From the sequence record MH752840.1: 64,000 nt of DNA. One strand, given 5' to 3'. Below, one piece after another: positions 42,617-64,000 of this stretch (within the stretch, counting starts at the first letter, position 1; every line of letters starts with the position of its first letter). Source of the stretch: Escherichia phage vB_EcoM-Pr121LW. Under the pieces are notes generated by a model that saw nothing but the letters and a program-made list of their open reading frames with translations, was not told the origin of the DNA and did not search any database. Both the position numbers and the translations under genes were made by a program.

Positions 42617-42954
42617 GTTTGTGGAGAAATATAGTTAACTACGTGTGTGGCAATCCAACTCCTGAAGAGAAGGATGTTGTGATTCACGATTTTACTAAAA
42701 GATCTCGTGAAAAAGACCTGCTGCTAACAAAGGTGGTTGATAAAGATCCTGCAGTCGGGGACTGGGCAGGTTTTGCGTTTACATCGGACAAATACACCTT
42801 TAACAAAGGTGACTATCTTGTTGTAGATTTTAACGAAGACATTGAGGGTGCTGAACCTTACTATCAGACCCTTATTATTGCAGGGTGCGTTGATCTCTCT
42901 GCAGGAATGCACAGTTTGATTCTTTTTGAGCTTGACTCTGAAGACCTTCAGTAG
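42613..42954 (+). CDS. hypothetical protein
   Basis: 113-aa ORF, RBS gaggggga, start overlaps upstream stop. Confidence 0.4.
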   Translation: MSLWRNIVNYVCGNPTPEEKDVVIHDFTKRSREKDLLLTKVVDKDPAVGDWAGFAFTSDKYTFNKGDYLVVDFNEDIEGAEPYYQTLIIAGCVDLSAGMHSLILFELDSEDLQ

Positions 42955-43014
42955 TAAGATGTTAGTCTAAAGGGGAGGCACTCCTCCCCACAAAAACTAA
43001 GGAAGCACTAAACG

Positions 43015-43317
43015 ATGAAACGTTATAAACCATACACTTTTGAAATCGATTTCGAACTTGACGATATGTTTACTGTGGAAGCTCAAGCAGTTGTCCAGTT
43101 GCCAGACTCGGAGTGCCGTGACTCTGATGTTGACTATTACGGATTTAGACAAATTACCGATGTGCGTGTTTACCACAACGGTGAAGAGGTGGACTTCCAC
43201 CAACTACCAAACGATATGCGCCACTCAATTTACAAACGTGCAGCCCGTGAACTAGAGTCCTATCTGGATGCAGCGACGACAGCAGCTGCATTTGCTGAAG
43301 AAGTTGGAGGTTTCTGA
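43015..43317 (+). CDS. hypothetical protein
   Basis: 100-aa ORF, RBS aaggaag. Confidence 0.4.
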   Translation: MKRYKPYTFEIDFELDDMFTVEAQAVVQLPDSECRDSDVDYYGFRQITDVRVYHNGEEVDFHQLPNDMRHSIYKRAARELESYLDAATTAAAFAEEVGGF

Positions 43318-57557: not shown

Positions 57558-57886
57558 CAGAGATCATCGTTTCAACTGCAGGGTATGTATTCCTGACAAT
57601 CATTGCGCTGGCTATTCTGGTGGCGGTGTATGGATTTGTTATCCTGCCTATTCTTGAGACATTTAGTTTGTGTCGGTGTTGGAGAAAAGCTTACGGACCA
57701 CAACCGTGGAAAGACTGGTTCCATTTGGTGCGTATAGCGTTCTCTTATGCCTATGACCACTCTAGCAGTGCATGCGTAACCGGGTACCATGCCTACAACT
57801 GGAACTGGGAAGGGTTGGGGAGATGGACTGTTACAAAAACTATACCCTTACGGTTGTACAAAGGAAAGAACAAACTGGGCACCTGA
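57554..57886 (+). CDS. membrane protein
   Basis: Hydrophobic segment YVFLTIIALAILVAVYGFVILPIL; last gene before non-coding region. Confidence 0.45.
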   Translation: MTEIIVSTAGYVFLTIIALAILVAVYGFVILPILETFSLCRCWRKAYGPQPWKDWFHLVRIAFSYAYDHSSSACVTGYHAYNWNWEGLGRWTVTKTIPLRLYKGKNKLGT

Positions 57887-58901
57887 TATTTTAAGTTATC
57901 AGGTTCCCAGAGATCAGGAGGATTTCTAAAATGGATTTCCTCCTTTTGATATTTCACCGGACCAGATATTTTAAAATTCTTAGAAAATCAGAAAATGGAT
58001 CGAAAACTAAAATGGATTTTTTCAACACAGGCGCGGAAAATTGTGCCAATCTATCTAGCCGTTTGCACCATATTCGAAATCACCGTTCCAGATTTCCCAC
58101 ACATACACACCTCCCCGCCATACCTTTCTCCACTCACTCTTAGTGATTTATGACGGAAAACCCATCACTATCAGTGAGTTGCGGTACAATTTTTCCAGTA
58201 CTCGATCTACTTTTCATTTCATGGTTTGGATTTTCTGAAAATTTTTCTCGATAAATTTCTCAGTACTCGATCTGTTTTTCGTTTTCTGAATCGGATTTTC
58301 TGGAAATCGTTCCGGCTCTCGACCTGAAATTTTTGGGGACGAAATCGATTTTTCGTTTTCAGAAATGGATTTTTAAAATTTCTATATGGGAATATTTTAT
58401 GGGGTACTGTTTTATAGGAAATTGTTACGGATGGTAATTAGCATGCTAATTAAATTTATTAAATGCGAGGAGTTCTCATTTAGAATTTTGAATGATAATC
58501 ATTCTCGTTTGCAGAATAACGGGCAGGCCCGGTGATTGTCTCCCGGCCCCTACTGCCCCGGCTTGCTATTATAGTAACACACAGGACAAAGAAAGCAAGA
58601 AGTTTTTGCATAAATTTTTAGACGATAATGATAATCGTTCTCATTTCATGCAGCGCCCATCCCCGGTGGTTGTCTCCCCCGTCACCGGTGCCTGCCGTCC
58701 TTTCGATAGGTATATTGTGCCACCTGGCGGGGCCGCTGTCAACACTTTTCAAAAAATTTTTCTAACCTGATGCGCTAACCGCTGCAACCTGGCGGGGCCA
58801 GCCTGGCAGTACCTAACTGACCAGGTAGGAGAGAATGAAGGCTTGTAAACCTGGTGGGCCTATGCTATAGGATAGGTAACAATTGAAGAGGAGGTACAAA
58901 A
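57887..58901. other. about 1-kb non-coding region with several families of short direct repeats
   Basis: Four aaaatggat copies, two cagtactcgatct copies, two tttcgttttc copies, two gataatcNttctcNttt ... cccggtgNttgtctccc units (58493-58565, 58623-58700), two cctggcggggcc copies; no ORF with credible coding character. Confidence 0.6.
57916..57955 (+). terminator. hairpin aggagga / tcctcct with T-rich tail (possible terminator)
   Basis: 7-bp stem with 15-nt loop followed by tttgatattt; just after last replication-module gene. Confidence 0.35.
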
Positions 58902-59078
58902 ATGAAAGGTAATATAATCCCCCTGGAAAATGTAGCTATTAATGACGCTGAGGCTATCGCCCTGGTTGAAAAGGCTATGGCGGGAGCGTTGGAACATAAA
59001 GAAGAGTACGAAAAAATGATGGTTAACCTGGCAGGGGCGGCGGCTGGAGAATTCTGCCCAAAAAATAATTTTACATAA
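58902..59078 (+). CDS. small early protein (58 aa)
   Basis: Hand-translated MKGNIIPLENVAIND...; RBS gaggagg 6 nt upstream; below track cutoff. Confidence 0.4.
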   Translation: MKGNIIPLENVAINDAEAIALVEKAMAGALEHKEEYEKMMVNLAGAAAGEFCPKNNFT

Positions 59079-59081
59079 TGG

Positions 59082-59110
59082 TTGACAGCTCGGATAGTTC
59101 TTGTTATTCT
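59082..59110 (+). promoter_or_regulatory. early promoter (TTGACA-17-TATTCT)
   Basis: Hexamers with 17-nt spacer. Confidence 0.5.
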
Positions 59111-59162
59111 TATCCTCGCAAGGTGAACAACACCACACTAATTAACAAAGAGGATAAAAATC

Positions 59163-59360
59163 ATGAACGCATACGGAATCAAAGTACGTCGCAACACTCG
59201 CCAGGTGGTCACCGACCAAGTGATTTGCCGGGTGGATGTAACCATCAACAACGGGCAAGGCCTTTATAAATTTCGTCGCGGTCATAGCTATACCCTGCAA
59301 CAGCTTAACCGTTGCGCCCTGACAAAAGGTCAGATCAACCACTGGTTTAATAAAAAATAA
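59163..59360 (+). CDS. small basic early protein
   Basis: 65 aa; own promoter 59082-59110 and RBS agaggataaaaatc. Confidence 0.45.
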   Translation: MNAYGIKVRRNTRQVVTDQVICRVDVTINNGQGLYKFRRGHSYTLQQLNRCALTKGQINHWFNKK

Positions 59361-59363
59361 ATA

Positions 59364-59392
59364 TTGACATATAGTCTGACACAAAATATACT
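59364..59392 (+). promoter_or_regulatory. early promoter (TTGACA-17-TATACT)
   Basis: Hexamers with 17-nt spacer, A-rich upstream. Confidence 0.6.
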
Positions 59393-59424
59393 GAAATCAC
59401 AAAAGACACTAAGAGGATAAAATC

Positions 59425-59823
59425 ATGAAAACCACAACCTTTAATTTTGATAATGCCGACTTCTCTTTTTCTGATGTCAAGAACTGCCGCCGTGATCGTG
59501 GATTTTACAAGGCTTATAATCTGGTGGGCCTGGACGATGACAATAATTTGCACGAAGTAGCTGAGATCCGGTATTATGCCGCCTCCAGCGGTAACACTCA
59601 TTATTGCGTCTTTTGGATGCACGACAGCAAGAACAACAAGTACGGTTATACTGGTGGCAAGGCGAGCGGTCACGGTTATGATAAGGCCAATGCAGCACTT
59701 GAAAGCGCGTTAAATGCTATGGGGATCACTGCCAACGGCTGGATCTATGAAGATGAGTTTTTGTCAGCACTTGCTGCCCACCTGGGGTATAAAAAGCACA
59801 TTGTGACATGCGCCCACGAATAA
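59425..59823 (+). CDS. early protein, unknown function
   Basis: 132 aa; own promoter 59364-59392 and RBS. Confidence 0.5.
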   Translation: MKTTTFNFDNADFSFSDVKNCRRDRGFYKAYNLVGLDDDNNLHEVAEIRYYAASSGNTHYCVFWMHDSKNNKYGYTGGKASGHGYDKANAALESALNAMGITANGWIYEDEFLSALAAHLGYKKHIVTCAHE

Positions 59824-59838
59824 AAAAAAAAAAAATTA

Positions 59839-59866
59839 TTGACACGCTGCAAAATTAAAGTAAACT
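59839..59866 (+). promoter_or_regulatory. early promoter (TTGACA-16-TAAACT) with upstream A-tract
   Basis: Hexamers with 16-nt spacer; a14 run at 59822-59835. Confidence 0.55.
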
Positions 59867-59876
59867 AGACACAAAA

Positions 59877-59895
59877 GGCGGGAATGTTTCCCGCC
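59877..59895 (+). promoter_or_regulatory. 5-prime UTR stem-loop
   Basis: ggcgggaatgtttcccgcc, 7-bp GC stem about 10 nt after the -10. Confidence 0.5.
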
Positions 59896-59914
59896 AACAC
59901 AAAGGAAAAAGATC

Positions 59915-60310
59915 ATGAATAAGAACGTACGCCGCATCATGAACGAACTGGCAAACGATGAAAAAATTATTGATATGCATTTGGTCAACATTTGCCGCCG
60001 TTGTGTAACATATAACAACCGCGCCGCAAAAGCGCGTGAGATGAACGCAAAAGGCACCTTAAAGCCCTTTCAGGTGGTTGTAAAATCTATAGCTAATGCA
60101 GCAGGCCAGGCGCATGACCACAACAACGAGAGCACTAATATTGATCCGTCTTACGTAATGAAACGGATCCGGACTTGCAAGAATAAAGAGCAGGTGTATA
60201 ACGTCATAGATTGGCTGGACTCCATGGGCGATGTGGTTTATAATAGGTTTTCTGCAGCTATCGAGATCCAGCTTGACAGACTGGACGGGAAAGTACTGAA
60301 AACTTACTGA
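59915..60310 (+). CDS. early protein, unknown function
   Basis: 131 aa; own promoter 59839-59866 and 5-prime UTR hairpin. Confidence 0.5.
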   Translation: MNKNVRRIMNELANDEKIIDMHLVNICRRCVTYNNRAAKAREMNAKGTLKPFQVVVKSIANAAGQAHDHNNESTNIDPSYVMKRIRTCKNKEQVYNVIDWLDSMGDVVYNRFSAAIEIQLDRLDGKVLKTY

Positions 60311-60311
60311 G

Positions 60312-60358
60312 TTTATTTTTAGATGGCCTTGACTCCAGGGCCATCAATAAAGTAAACT
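60312..60358 (+). repeat. 47-bp intergenic cassette, copy 1
   Basis: tttatttttagatggccttgactccagggccatcaataaagtaaact; T-run, inverted repeat gatggcc/ggccatc, TTGACT-18-TAAACT promoter-like hexamers. Confidence 0.7.
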
Positions 60359-60389
60359 AACCACAGTTGAGCGGAAAGGGGGCTTAAAG

Positions 60390-60509
60390 ATGAGTACTAC
60401 ACGCCAGCACACAAAGGTAACTATTATCGTTTGCATCATTGGTTACATCCTGGCGCAAATGTTGATGGGTAGCGCCAACGGTATCGCAAAATTTTTCTTA
60501 AACTTTTAA
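60390..60509 (+). CDS. small hydrophobic peptide (39 aa)
   Basis: Hand-translated MSTTRQHTKVTIIVCIIGYILAQMLMGSANGIAKFFLNF; RBS aaaggggg; downstream of repeat-cassette promoter. Confidence 0.3.
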   Translation: MSTTRQHTKVTIIVCIIGYILAQMLMGSANGIAKFFLNF

Positions 60510-60537
60510 TTGACAAGCTAACTTAGATCAGTATACT
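60510..60537 (+). promoter_or_regulatory. early promoter (TTGACA-16-TATACT)
   Basis: Hexamers with 16-nt spacer. Confidence 0.6.
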
Positions 60538-60587
60538 AAACACATAAACGGGAAAACTTCCCAGAACACACAAAAGGAGAAAACACC

Positions 60588-60929
60588 ATGACTACTATGA
60601 CCGCCGCAGAAAAAGCTATGCAGATCGCTGCGCTGAAAAAACAGATCGCAGACCTTGAGAACAAGATCGATAACTTTGAAATCGACGAGGACAAGTACGA
60701 CGAAAACTATGATGAATGGTTAGACGAGATCTACGGCGAAATTATGATCGGAAACATTTCTTTTCTTCCGTCGCGTATCCTCAAGGAGCTAGATCCTATC
60801 GCTTACCGCTGCGGATTTAGCGACTACATCGACAGCCTGGATATTGAGGACGATGAAGAATACCAGGAATTGCAGACAGAGCTTGAAGAAGTGAAAGAAG
60901 AGCTTTCAGAGCTGGAAGAAAACGAGTAA
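60588..60929 (+). CDS. acidic early protein
   Basis: 113 aa, strongly acidic C-terminal half; own promoter 60510-60537. Confidence 0.5.
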   Translation: MTTMTAAEKAMQIAALKKQIADLENKIDNFEIDEDKYDENYDEWLDEIYGEIMIGNISFLPSRILKELDPIAYRCGFSDYIDSLDIEDDEEYQELQTELEEVKEELSELEENE

Positions 60930-60930
60930 A

Positions 60931-60977
60931 TTTATTTTTAGATGGCCTTGACTCCAGGGCCATCAATAAAGTAAACT
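60931..60977 (+). repeat. 47-bp intergenic cassette, copy 2 (identical to 60312-60358)
   Basis: Exact repeat read from sequence; a degenerate third copy lies at about 61264-61315. Confidence 0.7.
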
Positions 60978-61018
60978 TTACACTGTTAACACTGAACTAA
61001 TACAGAGGAGTTAAAACC

Positions 61019-61264
61019 ATGGCCGCACTAATTACCAAATATTACGCCCCTACCAACACCAAAAGCGCCCGTATCATGGTAAAAGGCTTCGGACGTAAAA
61101 AGGTTTACACCTGGGATTATTCCCTAGACATGGAAGACAACTACACCAACGCGATGACCGATTTTATTAACGAGCTGAATACGCGGATCTTAACAAATTA
61201 TAAAATTACCGACATTGCTTATATAGGTGAAGGCGGGATCTGTTTTGTAGGCATTGTGAAATAG
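61019..61264 (+). CDS. early protein, unknown function
   Basis: 81 aa; RBS agaggag; downstream of second repeat cassette. Confidence 0.5.
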   Translation: MAALITKYYAPTNTKSARIMVKGFGRKKVYTWDYSLDMEDNYTNAMTDFINELNTRILTNYKITDIAYIGEGGICFVGIVK

Positions 61265-61339
61265 TTATTTTTTCGGTGGTCCTTGCTGCAGGGCCATCTA
61301 TAAAGATAATTTACTAACACCATGAAAGGAGAAAGTAAC

Positions 61340-61693
61340 ATGATCAGCGGGGCTAGTTTTATTATTGGCGCTATTGCTACGGCTTTAATTGTAAACAAGA
61401 TCCAGGATAAAAAGGAAAGAGGAAGTACCGCCCTTGCAGAATATCCATTTTGGACATTCAACGATAACGAAGATTATATTGTAAAGTATAAAAATAAAGA
61501 AGGTTACCAAGTAACACCGCGACCGATCCCTGCTTACAAGATGCAGGAAACACTATACCGCCTGGAGGCGGGGGGCGCAAAAATTGTAGACTTTTGGGGA
61601 TACGATCACACAGATCAGGAAGCTATAAAGCGACGTATCAGGGCTATTCAGGCCAATATTGAAGTTAGCAAGGGGGGAATATATGAAGATTAA
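61340..61693 (+). CDS. membrane-anchored early protein
   Basis: ATG 61340 with RBS aaaggagaaag; N-terminal hydrophobic ISGASFIIGAIATALIV. Confidence 0.45.
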   Translation: MISGASFIIGAIATALIVNKIQDKKERGSTALAEYPFWTFNDNEDYIVKYKNKEGYQVTPRPIPAYKMQETLYRLEAGGAKIVDFWGYDHTDQEAIKRRIRAIQANIEVSKGGIYED

Positions 61694-61880
61694 TTTTGAG
61701 AAAATTGTAAAGCGATCTCATGATTCCGAAGAGCTGCCGGAACGCCGCCAGCGTAACAATAAACTGAATAAGCCAAAAAGATTTGGGAAGATCTGGCGGA
61801 ATCATTATGATCGTAAATTGCCGGGCCTCCTTTTGGAACGTGAACGGCAGGCGGAACGATACCGCCACAAAGGCAACTAA
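61683..61880 (+). CDS. small basic protein
   Basis: ATG 61683 overlapping upstream gene; Arg/Lys-rich; terminator follows. Confidence 0.4.
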   Translation: MKINFEKIVKRSHDSEELPERRQRNNKLNKPKRFGKIWRNHYDRKLPGLLLERERQAERYRHKGN

Positions 61881-61888
61881 CAACCAAC

Positions 61889-61917
61889 GCCCCGCCATAG
61901 TGCGGGGCTTTTTATTT
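61889..61917 (+). terminator. rho-independent terminator
   Basis: gccccgccatagtgcggggc hairpin followed by tttttattt. Confidence 0.7.
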
Positions 61918-62039
61918 CTATCCTACGAATAGCGCCCCTGGTTGGCCCTGTAAGCGCCAAAAAGCCCCCCCACCTATGCAATCGCCCCCTTTAACCTGAA
62001 AACATCGCCCAGGGCCGTTTTATGGCGTTAAAAATATCA

Positions 62040-62067
62040 TTGACATCGTCAACAGGTTAGCTATACT
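62040..62067 (+). promoter_or_regulatory. early promoter (TTGACA-16-TATACT)
   Basis: Hexamers with 16-nt spacer. Confidence 0.6.
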
Positions 62068-62099
62068 AACCACATCAAAGAGAGAAAGGAGTAAACGCC

Positions 62100-62360
62100 A
62101 TGCGTAAATTAAAAAATTTTGATAAAGTTGATGTTATCCTGAATAATTTCTACTACTGCAACAACAAGGCTATTTGGTGGCGTGATAGTTCCACCGATAA
62201 AGTCAAGGCGCGCTTTCTTCAGGGGCATTGGCAAGGCCGCCCAGTGATTAAAATCATGGGGCAATTGGTAGCGTTTAAAAATTGCCGCCGTGTTGATGAC
62301 GTTGAGGAGATTTTAAACATTTTGCGCCACAATAATTTAAAAAATAGTGTTGACAAGTAA
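62100..62360 (+). CDS. early protein, unknown function
   Basis: 86 aa; own promoter 62040-62067 and RBS aaaggag. Confidence 0.5.
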   Translation: MRKLKNFDKVDVILNNFYYCNNKAIWWRDSSTDKVKARFLQGHWQGRPVIKIMGQLVAFKNCRRVDDVEEILNILRHNNLKNSVDK

Positions 62361-62377
62361 ATCTCAATAAGTATAAT
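62350..62377 (+). promoter_or_regulatory. early promoter (TTGACA-16-TATAAT)
   Basis: Consensus hexamers; -35 overlaps stop codon of upstream gene. Confidence 0.65.
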
Positions 62378-62387
62378 TAAACACACA

Positions 62388-62406
62388 GGCGGGAAAACTT
62401 CCCGCC
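62388..62406 (+). promoter_or_regulatory. 5-prime UTR stem-loop
   Basis: ggcgggaaaacttcccgcc, near-identical to hairpin at 59877. Confidence 0.5.
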
Positions 62407-62434
62407 ACCAACAAAGAAAACAGGAGAAAATATC

Positions 62435-63058
62435 ATGACCACCGTTAACATTACCACAGGTTACAATTTATCTTTCGACGTGCTGACCGACGAACAAAAA
62501 GAAAAAGCCGTTGAAATGGTCCGCGAAAGAGAAGAACACAGCGGGGATAACTTTTTTGCAGAAAGTGTAATTGAATACTATAAAGAATATGTTTTTCCAG
62601 AGTACGGGCTTGAAGATACAGATGTACATTGGTCCGGCTTTTGGTGCCAGGGCGACGGCGCGTCAATTAGCGCTGAAAATGTAAACTTAGAAAAATTCTT
62701 GCGTAAAGTCAAGTCTTTGACTAAATTCCGCTCAATTCGTCACTTGTTCGGCACAATGCACGATGGCGAGCTATCCGCAAGCGTTGAGCGTATCCCGTTT
62801 AGCCATTATCACCACGAAAACACAATAGGCGGGTGCATCGATACCAATTGGCTAGACCTGACCACCAAGCAAGAGGATAAAGTTGAAGAGCTGGAAGAGC
62901 TGATCACCGAGACGGTACGGGAGCTATCCCGCAAGGTTTACGTAGACCTGGAGCAAGCCTATCTTGAACAATTCACTACCGAAAACCTGATCGGCCTTAT
63001 CGAGGCCAATGATTGGCGGTTTGATGTGGATGAATATGGCGAGATGACTTTTTCATAA
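62435..63058 (+). CDS. early protein, unknown function
   Basis: 207 aa; own promoter 62350-62377 with UTR hairpin; RBS caggag. Confidence 0.5.
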   Translation: MTTVNITTGYNLSFDVLTDEQKEKAVEMVREREEHSGDNFFAESVIEYYKEYVFPEYGLEDTDVHWSGFWCQGDGASISAENVNLEKFLRKVKSLTKFRSIRHLFGTMHDGELSASVERIPFSHYHHENTIGGCIDTNWLDLTTKQEDKVEELEELITETVRELSRKVYVDLEQAYLEQFTTENLIGLIEANDWRFDVDEYGEMTFS

Positions 63059-63066
63059 ATAAAGTG

Positions 63067-63094
63067 TTGCAATAACCTAAAAACCTGCTATATT
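63067..63094 (+). promoter_or_regulatory. early promoter (TTGCAA-16-TATATT)
   Basis: Hexamers with 16-nt spacer. Confidence 0.5.
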
Positions 63095-63103
63095 AAAACT
63101 CAA

Positions 63104-63127
63104 GGGGGGCAAGACGTTTGCCCCCCC
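63104..63127 (+). promoter_or_regulatory. 5-prime UTR stem-loop
   Basis: ggggggcaagacgtttgccccccc GC-rich hairpin just after the -10. Confidence 0.5.
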
Positions 63128-63151
63128 ACACAAAACAAAGAGGAAAACATC

Positions 63152-63532
63152 ATGAAAAACACTACTAAAGCTATTGACACCGTCATGTTTAACCTGGTTA
63201 CCTTTCGCGAGGATATGAAAGATCTTCCACGTGAAACAGTGTGCGATCACATTGAAAACTATCGCAAACTAATCAAAGAGTTGCCTTTAAAACGTGACCA
63301 GTATGCGGCTAACGCTATGCTCAACGCCATGATCAAAAAGATGATTCAGTGTGATTTAACCATGGCCTATGATTATGCAGGTGGTCGTTTTGCAGTATAC
63401 AATCAGCCCGTGCCTGGTATGGGCACCACCGAAGAATTGCACGCGCTCAATCTAAAACAAGACGTGTGGGATAGTATGCCCCGCGTGGTGGTGTGGGCAG
63501 AAAGCGGAAAGATTTACGGCGATAATTTTTAA
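63152..63532 (+). CDS. early protein, unknown function
   Basis: 126 aa; own promoter 63067-63094 with UTR hairpin; terminator follows. Confidence 0.5.
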   Translation: MKNTTKAIDTVMFNLVTFREDMKDLPRETVCDHIENYRKLIKELPLKRDQYAANAMLNAMIKKMIQCDLTMAYDYAGGRFAVYNQPVPGMGTTEELHALNLKQDVWDSMPRVVVWAESGKIYGDNF

Positions 63533-63542
63533 TCAGGTAACA

Positions 63543-63568
63543 GGCGGCATATTTGCCGCCTTATTGTT
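63543..63568 (+). terminator. rho-independent terminator
   Basis: ggcggcatatttgccgcc hairpin followed by ttattgtt. Confidence 0.65.
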
Positions 63569-63596
63569 AAACAGAACTGCAAAAGAGGTACATAGA

Positions 63597-63968
63597 ATGG
63601 AATTTATTATTTTGGCTGTATTGGTTGCCTTGTTTAACGCCTGGATCGCTGGCAAGATAGGTAGATCCGCCTTTTTATGGTTTATTATATCTATTTTCCT
63701 GGGGGTGGTTGCAACTATTGTATTGGTTATCCTTGCAATTGTTGACAAGGGGAATAATAGAAAGGGTAAAGTATTTTCAGACCTGTACGACGCTCAAACG
63801 TTTGTCAACGCCTATTATAGTGATCTTCCAGTCTCCCTACGCTGCAGCCTGGCACAACAGGTTTTTGATGAGGCTAAAACCAGAGATCAAGCCCACGAGA
63901 TATGTTTAACTGAGGCGGATCGCCTATTTGAGAGGAATAGAAAATATGTGGGCCAACCGTTTAAATAA
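63597..63968 (+). CDS. membrane protein
   Basis: ATG 63597 with RBS aaagagg; two hydrophobic helices. Confidence 0.45.
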   Translation: MEFIILAVLVALFNAWIAGKIGRSAFLWFIISIFLGVVATIVLVILAIVDKGNNRKGKVFSDLYDAQTFVNAYYSDLPVSLRCSLAQQVFDEAKTRDQAHEICLTEADRLFERNRKYVGQPFK

Positions 63969-64000
63969 TGCCACGTTAATTAATCCCTTTAGTGAAGATT

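Follow-up and report, generated by a model that had tools for sequence, protein, structure and literature searches.

Promoter and hairpin cassettes in an early-gene region of an rV5-like coliphage: predicted expression modules that coincide with breakpoints of gene exchange

The stretch of DNA analysed here, referred to as the window, comprises 64,000 nucleotides of Escherichia phage vB_EcoM-Pr121LW (MH752840.1), and the subject of this work is its early-gene region at 58.9-64.0 kb, in which small genes alternate with repeated promoter and hairpin cassettes. In BLAST searches, this region matched 122 phage records at 90-96% identity, all of the Vequintavirus (rV5-like) type, and by its sequence the window belongs to an rV5-like phage of the Vequintavirus group. 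In annotated relatives the region consists of 12-15 consecutive 'hypothetical proteins' on a single strand, and it belongs to the rV5 transcription unit '10-1-238-164'. Between 59.0 and 63.6 kb there are ten sigma70-like promoters ahead of eleven small open reading frames (ORFs) of unknown function, together with three strong hairpins, a 47-bp repeat that is exact in two copies and degenerate in a third, and two canonical terminators (Table 1). The ORFs were assigned to PHROG families of unknown function, and none of the ten ORFs tested exceeded the curated Pfam cut-offs. A search of 57.5-64 kb against all Rfam families in E-value mode returned a single match, which was below threshold and due to chance (Clostridium-PBP, 34 bits versus a 94-bit cut-off). 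Pattern scans of IMG/VR and a metagenome collection yielded a few extra contigs, with one divergent lineage among them. An initial annotation of the region had proposed modular duplication of regulatory cassettes, and all the features that it listed were found where it had placed them.

To describe the promoters, a consensus scan of 58.0-64.0 kb was compared with shuffled sequence, and 27 promoter-like sites were found versus 12.8 +/- 3.4 in the shuffles. The good sites are intergenic and on the plus strand, with 31-57 nt between the end of the -10 box and the start codon; their hexamers are kept across 11 aligned genomes, and A- or T-runs lie upstream of promoters, for example at 59822-59835 and 60312-60320. 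The view of the initial annotation that nearly every gene has its own near-consensus promoter goes too far: an exact TTGACA with a 16-17-nt spacer precedes only six of the eleven genes, and the others have weaker sites or none. The promoters themselves are not new. Six of them, at 62350, 62040, 60510, 59839, 59364 and 59082, are P185, P186, P192, P194, P195 and P195A in Table S4 of the 2013 rV5 paper, in which the terminator at 63542 is t184 (Kropinski et al., 2013, PMC3606486), and in the GenBank record of phage Gotham PhagePromoter predictions mark all of the cassettes, with the 47-bp element and the equivalent of 63067 among them. Absent from the rV5 table are the 47-bp element, the 63067 promoter, the 61889 terminator, the promoter-proximal hairpins and any recombination at promoters. 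The cassettes are paralogous, as had been proposed: those at 59839, 60510 and 62350 have the same -10-proximal sequence, the same GGCGGGAA..TTCCCGCC hairpin and a CA-rich leader (repeat families D4, D6 and D10), and a Shine-Dalgarno and start codon sequence, AAAGGAGAAAA..ATG, is repeated among cassettes (family D3). The 59839 promoter also has its -10 context, TAAAGTAAACT, in common with the 47-bp element. We rejected TAAAGTAAACT as the mark of a special promoter class across the genome; it has three exact copies, all in the region, and matches with one mismatch occur at chance level.

We then considered the hairpins that follow promoters. The initial annotation held that promoters are 'usually' followed by a stable stem-loop; this applies to three promoters, where the hairpin is strong (59877, 62388 and 63104), but the rest lack one, apart from a weak counterpart of 5 bp at 60550. 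Only 41 of the 64,000 plus-strand positions of the window are starts of strong perfect-stem hairpins, and on that basis about 0.03 would be expected in a 5-nt slot after the ten promoters, where three are seen. The layout recurs at position 42932 of the window, further downstream in phage isim, at rV5 promoter P168, and in phages KKE7M and UAB_1 (Justusliebigvirus). Counting the window, isim, rV5_ev146, KKE7M and UAB_1 together, at least seven hairpin sequences unrelated to one another are present in at least 11 cassettes, each beginning 10-14 nt (in most cases 11 nt) after the -10 box. BLAST with the whole promoter-hairpin cassette gave no match in other genera; its spread across genera was seen from the KKE7M and UAB_1 loci. 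Among the 11 aligned genomes the stems are conserved and the loops vary or flip (the 59877 loop is TGT or ACA, depending on the genome), and in two one-sided stem variants (GGUGGG at 62388 in an IMG/VR contig and GGCGGGG..U in ECML-10) pairing is kept only in plus-strand RNA. With a start at the usual +7, the transcript is predicted to begin with 2-5 unpaired nt, followed by the hairpin, a CA-rich leader nearly without U, and a strong Shine-Dalgarno sequence.

The records of phages EdH4 and Alma label the promoter-proximal hairpins 'terminators', which would mean that they stop either read-through on the plus strand or, on the minus strand, antisense transcription into the early promoters. A terminator scan gives some weight to the latter, in that all three hairpins score as terminator-like on the minus strand, where the CA-rich stretch between -10 box and hairpin becomes a U-rich tail, and the stem-loops of the promoter-early stem-loop (PeSL) cassettes of T4-like phages, discussed below, were reported to terminate transcription in a reporter assay. 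However, because the 8 nt 3' of each stem contain no T on the plus strand (AACACAAA, ACCAACAA and CACACAAA), compared with 6-7 T at the true terminators 61889 and 63542, the hairpins do not appear to be plus-strand intrinsic terminators in spite of these labels, a point that is new here. More generally, the GC hairpin and U-rich tract of intrinsic terminators are found at 61889 and 63542, but not, on the plus strand, at 59877, 62388 or 63104 or in the three copies of the 47-bp element (E1-E3). There is no minus-strand gene across 33-64 kb, the two one-sided stem variants would unpair a minus-strand hairpin, and the position of unrelated hairpins at a fixed distance from the -10 box fits a function tied to the transcription start and not to the end of the upstream gene. 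We therefore consider termination on either strand an improbable role for these hairpins.

The best reading, by analogy, is that they would act as 5'-terminal protective stem-loops. Stabilising stem-loops at the 5' end, which begin within about 0-4 nt of it, are found in the E. coli ompA 5' untranslated region, the phage T7 phi10 leader and synthetic 5' hairpins. Like the ompA and phi10 leaders, the cassettes combine a strong hairpin a few nt from the predicted 5' end with an unstructured leader and a Shine-Dalgarno sequence; unlike them, they have 5' ends that are predicted, and the hairpin is present at a subset of promoters only.

Two side observations concern these hairpins. A complete cassette lies at 42932-43017, with a TTGACT-17-TAAGAT promoter, the hairpin GGGGAGGCACTCCTCCCC 12 nt after the -10 box, a CA-rich leader and an ATG at 43015; another promoter-plus-hairpin match, at 43229, was discarded since it lies inside a coding gene. 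Also, the loops of two quasi-palindromes are reverse-complemented between genomes with their stems unchanged, at 59885-59887 (TGT/ACA) and at 61896-61901 in terminator 61889 (CATAGT/ACAATG), which is the signature of template-switch inversion in quasi-palindromes.

The 47-bp element reported at 60312-60358 and 60931-60977 is indeed exact, and the similarity reaches 57 nt at 93% identity. The degenerate third copy was located at 61265 and is 65% identical, a fourth lies beyond the window end, and each Vequintavirus genome has four copies. The core inverted repeat, GATGGCC/GGCCATC, has two matches versus none expected. It had been proposed as either an operator or an RNA-processing site. As a site at the RNA level it stands, because the repeat lies within a longer hairpin of two parts (-20.2 kcal/mol, z -5.1). 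In it, the T-run and AAAGUAAA form an 8-bp A-U lower stem, which a 2x3 internal loop separates from a 10-bp GC upper stem capped by a tetraloop. Across 25-26 distinct copies, the partners pair in 97-99% of cells, but in 37-57% when they are slid. Three lower-stem pairs are changed on both sides (UA/CG, UA/GU/AU/GC and AU/UA/CG), and several upper-stem pairs swap between Watson-Crick and G.U; both the G.U pairs and the compensatory changes fit a plus-strand transcript only. A covariance model scored about 74 bits on the plus strand and about 41 on the minus strand, and found only the three copies in the window. When applied to the divergent lineage (IMG/VR and ENA contigs), it recovered at least five copies outside the training set, with apical loops of 5-21 nt and an extra compensated pair, CG to UA. 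Several of these divergent copies have neither -35 nor -10 box and still lie 1-3 nt after a stop codon. The conserved core is thus best described as a predicted plus-strand RNA hairpin that overlaps a promoter in some copies, which is new here.

The embedded promoter, which is weak and present in three of the four genomic copies, looks real too, because Vequintavirus copies 1, 2 and 4 never vary in the loop bases needed to complete TTGAC, although the loop bases beside them do, and because KKE7M has a 5' hairpin at the standard offset after the -10 box of the element. The third copy has a weak promoter-like site inside and a degenerate -35 box, which is TTGCTG in this phage and TGGTNG in the 17 further genomes read.

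The palindrome straddles the -35 box in copies 1, 2 and 4, and its arms are almost invariant in 120 genomes, as would be expected if it were a DNA operator at which a dimeric phage or host regulator occludes or activates the flanked -35 box. An operator is nevertheless very unlikely, because the two arms are anywhere from 4 to 21 nt apart, depending on the family member, and because the strands are not equivalent in pairing: differences between arms are G.U-compatible on the plus strand only, and the model scores about 30 bits higher there. In addition, pairing with compensatory changes runs 8 bp beyond the repeat, and both the third copy and divergent copies keep the arms and stems with no -35 box left to regulate.

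If the two-part hairpin acts as RNA, it might be an attenuator or terminator of upstream read-through, the role first proposed for PeSL stem-loops, instead of a processing or stability element. It lies 1-3 nt after stop codons, UUUA follows copies 2-4, and one PeSL stem-loop lowered a lacZ reporter as strongly as rrnB T1. Because there is no U tract 3' of the hairpin, however, the element does not appear to terminate transcription on either strand: what follows the GC-rich upper stem is A-rich (AAUAAAG), the full hairpin is closed at its base by A-U pairs with no more than 3 U after them, and the terminator scan reports the two-part hairpin on neither strand. The genes after E1-E3, moreover, have weak promoters of their own or none, and efficient termination would silence them. 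Attenuation accordingly has a low probability in our view, and the most economical guess is a processing or stabilising role on read-through transcripts.

RNase III processing sites lie between the early genes of phage T7 (R0.3, R0.5, R1, R1.1 and R1.3). The two-part hairpins resemble them as repeated intercistronic hairpins in an early multi-gene unit, with two helices and a small asymmetric internal loop directly after stop codons, but differ in having only 16-18 bp paired (8 bp, the 2x3 internal loop and 8-10 bp) compared with about two helical turns, no sequence relationship, and no Rfam match. Within the overall interpretation given below, we give the idea that the hairpin is an RNase III-type site or a 3'-end barrier somewhat less than an even chance. 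A broader proposal, that the 45-nt hairpin family, with its copies in the divergent lineage, is an undescribed composite of an RNA processing or stability signal (for RNase III or a phage nuclease), an optional promoter, and a portable recombination linker within and between subfamilies, possibly via excised circles, we consider unlikely.

A further motif, (A)ACCTGGCGGGGCC, has three matches in the window versus 0.22 expected and contains a CCWGG (Dcm) site. Its sites are at 58721, 58786, 58848, 59025 and 61938 of the window and at 8978 of L001. In the divergent lineage it forms the loop of the two-part hairpin (element copies L026, L027 and L034), and several small deletions in relatives (YP-6, Alma and typing phage 14) lie between its copies.

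We next asked where the genomes of relatives differ in this region. A 619-bp unit from E1 to E2, containing two genes, is absent from IMG/VR contig L004 and from phages magaca, phiWec189 and ime, and the junction consists of the E1 upstream flank, one clean element and the E2 downstream flank. Phage YP-6 lacks the gene for a 207-aa protein, and the flanks of the deletion meet in AGTGTTG, where promoters 62350 and 63067 have their -35 boxes. The promoter at 62040 exists as three alleles: two promoter copies around three extra ORFs (an IMG/VR contig and MiataMamis), a 22-bp insert remnant (rV5, typing phage 14, ECML-10 and SophiaRose), and the single clean promoter of this window. In ECML-10, a patch of the cassette at 62350 is converted to the 60510 type. 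KKE7M, which as a Justusliebigvirus belongs to another subfamily, is 96.6% identical to window 60509-60975 and matches nothing on either side; compared with its own relative UAB_1, also a Justusliebigvirus, it has a different gene replaced by this module. The module's left crossover falls within the promoter TTGACAAGATAACTAAAATC, which both sides share, and its right crossover within the likewise shared -10 region AATAAAGTAAAYT. Across four clean events, all eight endpoints lie within, or no more than about 2 nt from, promoter or element cores, which make up about one third of intergenic DNA. These comparisons show that relatives have gained, lost and swapped genes at breakpoints within the cassettes themselves, and that one module exchange joins Vequintavirus and Justusliebigvirus; both points are new here. 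Apparent 700-bp 'insertions' in the BLAST table were dismissed as an artefact in which the fourth element copy, beyond the window end, had been joined in. In rV5_ev146 the losses amount to several kb: window 59909-60401 is missing, as is the stretch from 61829 to just upstream of rV5 P168, beyond the window end, suggesting that at least that much of the region is dispensable.

Such a pattern might also be left by neutral tandem duplication, with hairpins that are incidental and breakpoints that lie between genes only because disrupted genes were purged. The cassettes are clearly paralogous, and intergenic breakpoints are those expected to survive selection. Against this, stems are kept with compensatory changes as loops vary, the hairpin position is fixed in cassettes with unrelated sequences, the same architecture is found in two subfamilies, and the endpoints of the clean events fall on the cores, out of all intergenic DNA. 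We regard purely neutral leftovers as extremely unlikely.

The closest known counterpart of this region is the PeSL system, described from the T4-like phages RB49/phi1, T4/PST and KVP40/nt-1, in which a sigma70 early promoter, an AT-rich tract and a stem-loop in one of several positional classes lie among ORFans and serve to shuffle modules (Arbiol et al., 2010, PMC2839356; Comeau et al., 2014, PMC4122927). All of the sequence-level features that define PeSLs are found here. As in PeSLs, an early promoter of the sigma70-consensus type, preceded by A/T-rich sequence, is combined with a stable stem-loop, in many cases poly-G/poly-C, and with a Shine-Dalgarno sequence and ATG. PeSL stem-loops may overlap the -35 or -10 box, separate the two, precede them or come directly after the -10 box, and the stem-loop position here is comparable, with the E1/E2 hairpin enclosing the -35 box and those at 59877, 62388 and 63104 starting 10-11 nt downstream of the -10 box. 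Like PeSLs, the cassettes are intergenic and clustered in variable regions of small ORFans, and indels and replacements between close relatives break inside them, here in the four clean events and one conversion tract between paralogous cassettes. There are differences as well: the lineage is that of the Vequintavirinae and Stephanstirmvirinae, terminator tails are missing from the stem-loops, canonical terminators exist separately, and one class of stem-loop, a two-part RNA hairpin conserved with covariation, is maintained even where there is no promoter. For PeSLs, experiments have demonstrated mini-circles and terminator activity, whereas the cassettes here are known from sequence alone. 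In the searchable literature, PeSLs are described for T4-like phages, with passing mention for a few other groups and none for rV5-like phages.

In our interpretation, the region is probably a hyperplastic early-gene 'ORFanage' of self-contained expression modules that follow the PeSL design in another lineage. A host sigma70 promoter preceded by A/T-rich sequence would drive each module. In about one third of cases the transcript would start with only about 2-5 unpaired nt before a GC-rich hairpin, and a CA-rich unstructured leader with a strong Shine-Dalgarno sequence would lead into one or two small ORFs. Modules would be separated by intrinsic terminators (61889 and 63542) or by the repeated 45-nt two-part hairpin directly after stop codons. 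The most likely role of the promoter-proximal hairpins would be to shield early mRNAs against decay that depends on the 5' end (RppH, RNase E), and the two-part intercistronic hairpin would most likely be a processing or stabilising site on read-through transcripts. The repeated promoter and hairpin sequences in turn provide the homology for deletion, insertion, conversion and module exchange among relatives. The architecture, the conservation of the hairpins as plus-strand RNA, and the use of the repeats as exchange homology, including between two subfamilies, are shown by the sequences compared here.

Several observations weigh against this interpretation, in addition to the minus-strand terminator scores of the three promoter-proximal hairpins with their U-rich tracts. 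A hairpin is present at only 3-4 of the ten promoters and is not obligatory. The covariation in the 47-bp element comes from few independent events, and much of it is difference between paralogous copies; its 18-bp interrupted helix is also shorter than classic RNase III substrates. Two deletions (in rV5_ev146 and ECML-10) have one end inside coding sequence, with a CA-rich leader joined to a similar coding stretch, and purging of disrupted genes alone would bias surviving breakpoints to intergenic DNA. Finally, since no transcriptome or start-site map of Vequintavirus or phi92 was found in the searchable literature, the start sites, the promoter activity and the 5' position of the hairpins are predictions.

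If correct, this interpretation extends the PeSL idea, in which regulatory sequences double as recombination linkers that shuffle accessory genes, beyond T4-like phages. To the known kind it adds a conserved family of two-part intercistronic hairpins and a documented promoter-to-promoter swap between subfamilies, which is clean and recent and involves coliphages used for therapy and typing. It would also correct annotations, both of 'terminator' hairpins downstream of promoters that have no terminator tails and of two small rV5 ORFs in a non-coding spacer. The compact insulated cassettes (promoter, 5' hairpin, CA-rich leader and Shine-Dalgarno sequence) and the conserved intercistronic hairpin could be reused in phage engineering.

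Table 1. Predicted regulatory features between 59.0 and 63.6 kb of the window
Feature	Position	Strand	Details
Promoter TTGACA-17-TATTCT	59082..59110	+	Gene 59163 (rV5 'P195A')
Promoter TTGACA-17-TATACT	59364..59392	+	Gene 59425 (rV5 P195); leader short, unstructured
Promoter TTGACA-16-TAAACT	59839..59866	+	Gene 59915 (rV5 P194); A-run upstream
Hairpin GGCGGGAAUGUUUCCCGCC	59877..59895	+	-14.6 kcal/mol, z -4.3; 11 nt after -10; followed by CA-rich leader; no U tract
Element copy E1	60312..60358	+	Two-part hairpin 60312-60356; embedded -35 TTGACT at 60329, -10 TAAACT at 60353; 2 nt after gene 59915 stop codon
Promoter TTGACT-18-TAAACT	60329	+	Inside E1
Promoter TTGACA-16-TATACT	60510..60537	+	Gene 60588 (rV5 P192); left crossover of module shared with Justusliebigvirus KKE7M
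Weak 5-bp remnant of GGCGGGAA..TTCCCGCC hairpin	60550..60562	+	-5.5 kcal/mol, z -1.7; after promoter 60510
Element copy E2	60931..60977	+	Identical to E1 over 47 nt; 2 nt after gene 60588 stop codon; recombination partner of E1; right crossover of KKE7M module
Promoter TTGACT-18-TAAACT	60948	+	Inside E2
Element copy E3	61265..61309	+	Two-part hairpin via G.U and swapped pairs, -16.5 kcal/mol, z -3.4
Canonical intrinsic terminator	61889..61916	+	7-bp GC stem, then TTTTTATT; -15.9 kcal/mol, z -4.5; labelled terminator in EdH4 and Alma
C-rich, G-poor, unstructured spacer	61917..62030	+	41 C, 22 G in 114 nt; one per genome; Vequintavirus only
Promoter TTGACA-16-TATACT	62040..62067	+	Gene 62100 (rV5 P186); three-allele indel site
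Consensus promoter TTGACA-16-TATAAT	62350..62377	+	Gene 62435 (rV5 P185); left junction of YP-6 deletion
Hairpin GGCGGGAAAACUUCCCGCC	62388..62406	+	-14.6 kcal/mol, z -5.6; 11 nt after -10
Promoter TTGCAA-16-TATATT, TGn (extended -10)	63067..63094	+	Gene 63152; right junction of YP-6 deletion
Poly-G/poly-C hairpin	63104..63126	+	-18.7 kcal/mol, z -4.3; 10 nt after -10
Intrinsic terminator (rV5 t184)	63542..63569	+	-16.2 kcal/mol, z -5.3

The C-rich stretch between the terminator at 61889 and the promoter at 62040 had been noted as an unexplained element with four CGCCC-containing motifs. The enrichment is real: 61917-61996 contains 33 C versus 13 G in 80 nt, about 3.5 standard deviations above the window mean. 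All four motifs are present, but the first is the 5' arm of the terminator (61889-61908 plus TTTTTATTT), which the initial annotation had not recognised, and the stretch as a whole resolves into the terminator, an unstructured spacer, and the A-tract and promoter at 62040; it is thus unexplained only in part. In 11 genomes three of the four motifs vary, and of those outside the terminator stem only AGCGCCCCTGGTTGGCCC is kept. We rejected the spacer as an array of four binding motifs because of this variation, and as a structured RNA on its z-scores (-1.1 on the plus strand and -1.3 on the minus strand). Rut sites are described as C-rich, G-poor stretches of about 80 nt that stay unstructured in the transcript. 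The spacer fits this description, and we tentatively suggest it as a candidate Rho-loading (rut-like) backstop to terminator 61889. The strongest C-rich, G-poor stretch on the plus strand of the window is 58059-58138 (34 C, 6 G in 80 nt), which is non-coding and about 170 nt past the last upstream gene, whose ORF ends at 57886; like 61917-61996, it could be a Rho-loading site. Two rV5 ORFs, gp182 and gp183 (ORF187/188; L019 5384-5607, corresponding to window ~61900-62030), lie inside the C-rich spacer between terminator and promoter, and they are probably spurious because most other records leave the stretch non-coding.

Among the genes of the region, the 207-aa ORF (62435-63058) is related at the DNA level to sequences of jumbo coliphages (121Q and its relatives) and of phage TH18, with 67-73% identity across some 260 nt. 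This gene, which is also the one deleted in YP-6, seems to be an accessory gene that travels widely. An IMG/VR search with the 207-aa protein found two close loci only. We also noted seventeen 'Campylobacter phage' records (MG0656xx, with C. jejuni as host for most) that are 91-95% identical here to E. coli Vequintavirus; the stated hosts are probably mistaken, unless these phages are carry-over from E. coli.

Upstream of the early genes, a non-coding region of about 1 kb contains a near-consensus Fur box at 58624-58642, GATAATGATAATCGTTCTC, which agrees with 17 of the 19 positions of the 19-bp consensus, and a weaker copy at ~58489-58507. Two matches (both strands of one site) were found versus 0.03 expected. 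The box overlaps a possible promoter, TTGCAT-N18-GATAAT, and is almost invariant in 11 Vequintavirus genomes; the GC-rich blocks after it are not significantly structured (z about -0.2). At 58188-58373, within the conserved non-coding region drawn as a grey 'non-coding' box in the rV5 paper, three tandem repeats of about 65 nt with recurring AAATGGATT and CTCGATCT look iteron-like and could mark a replication origin.

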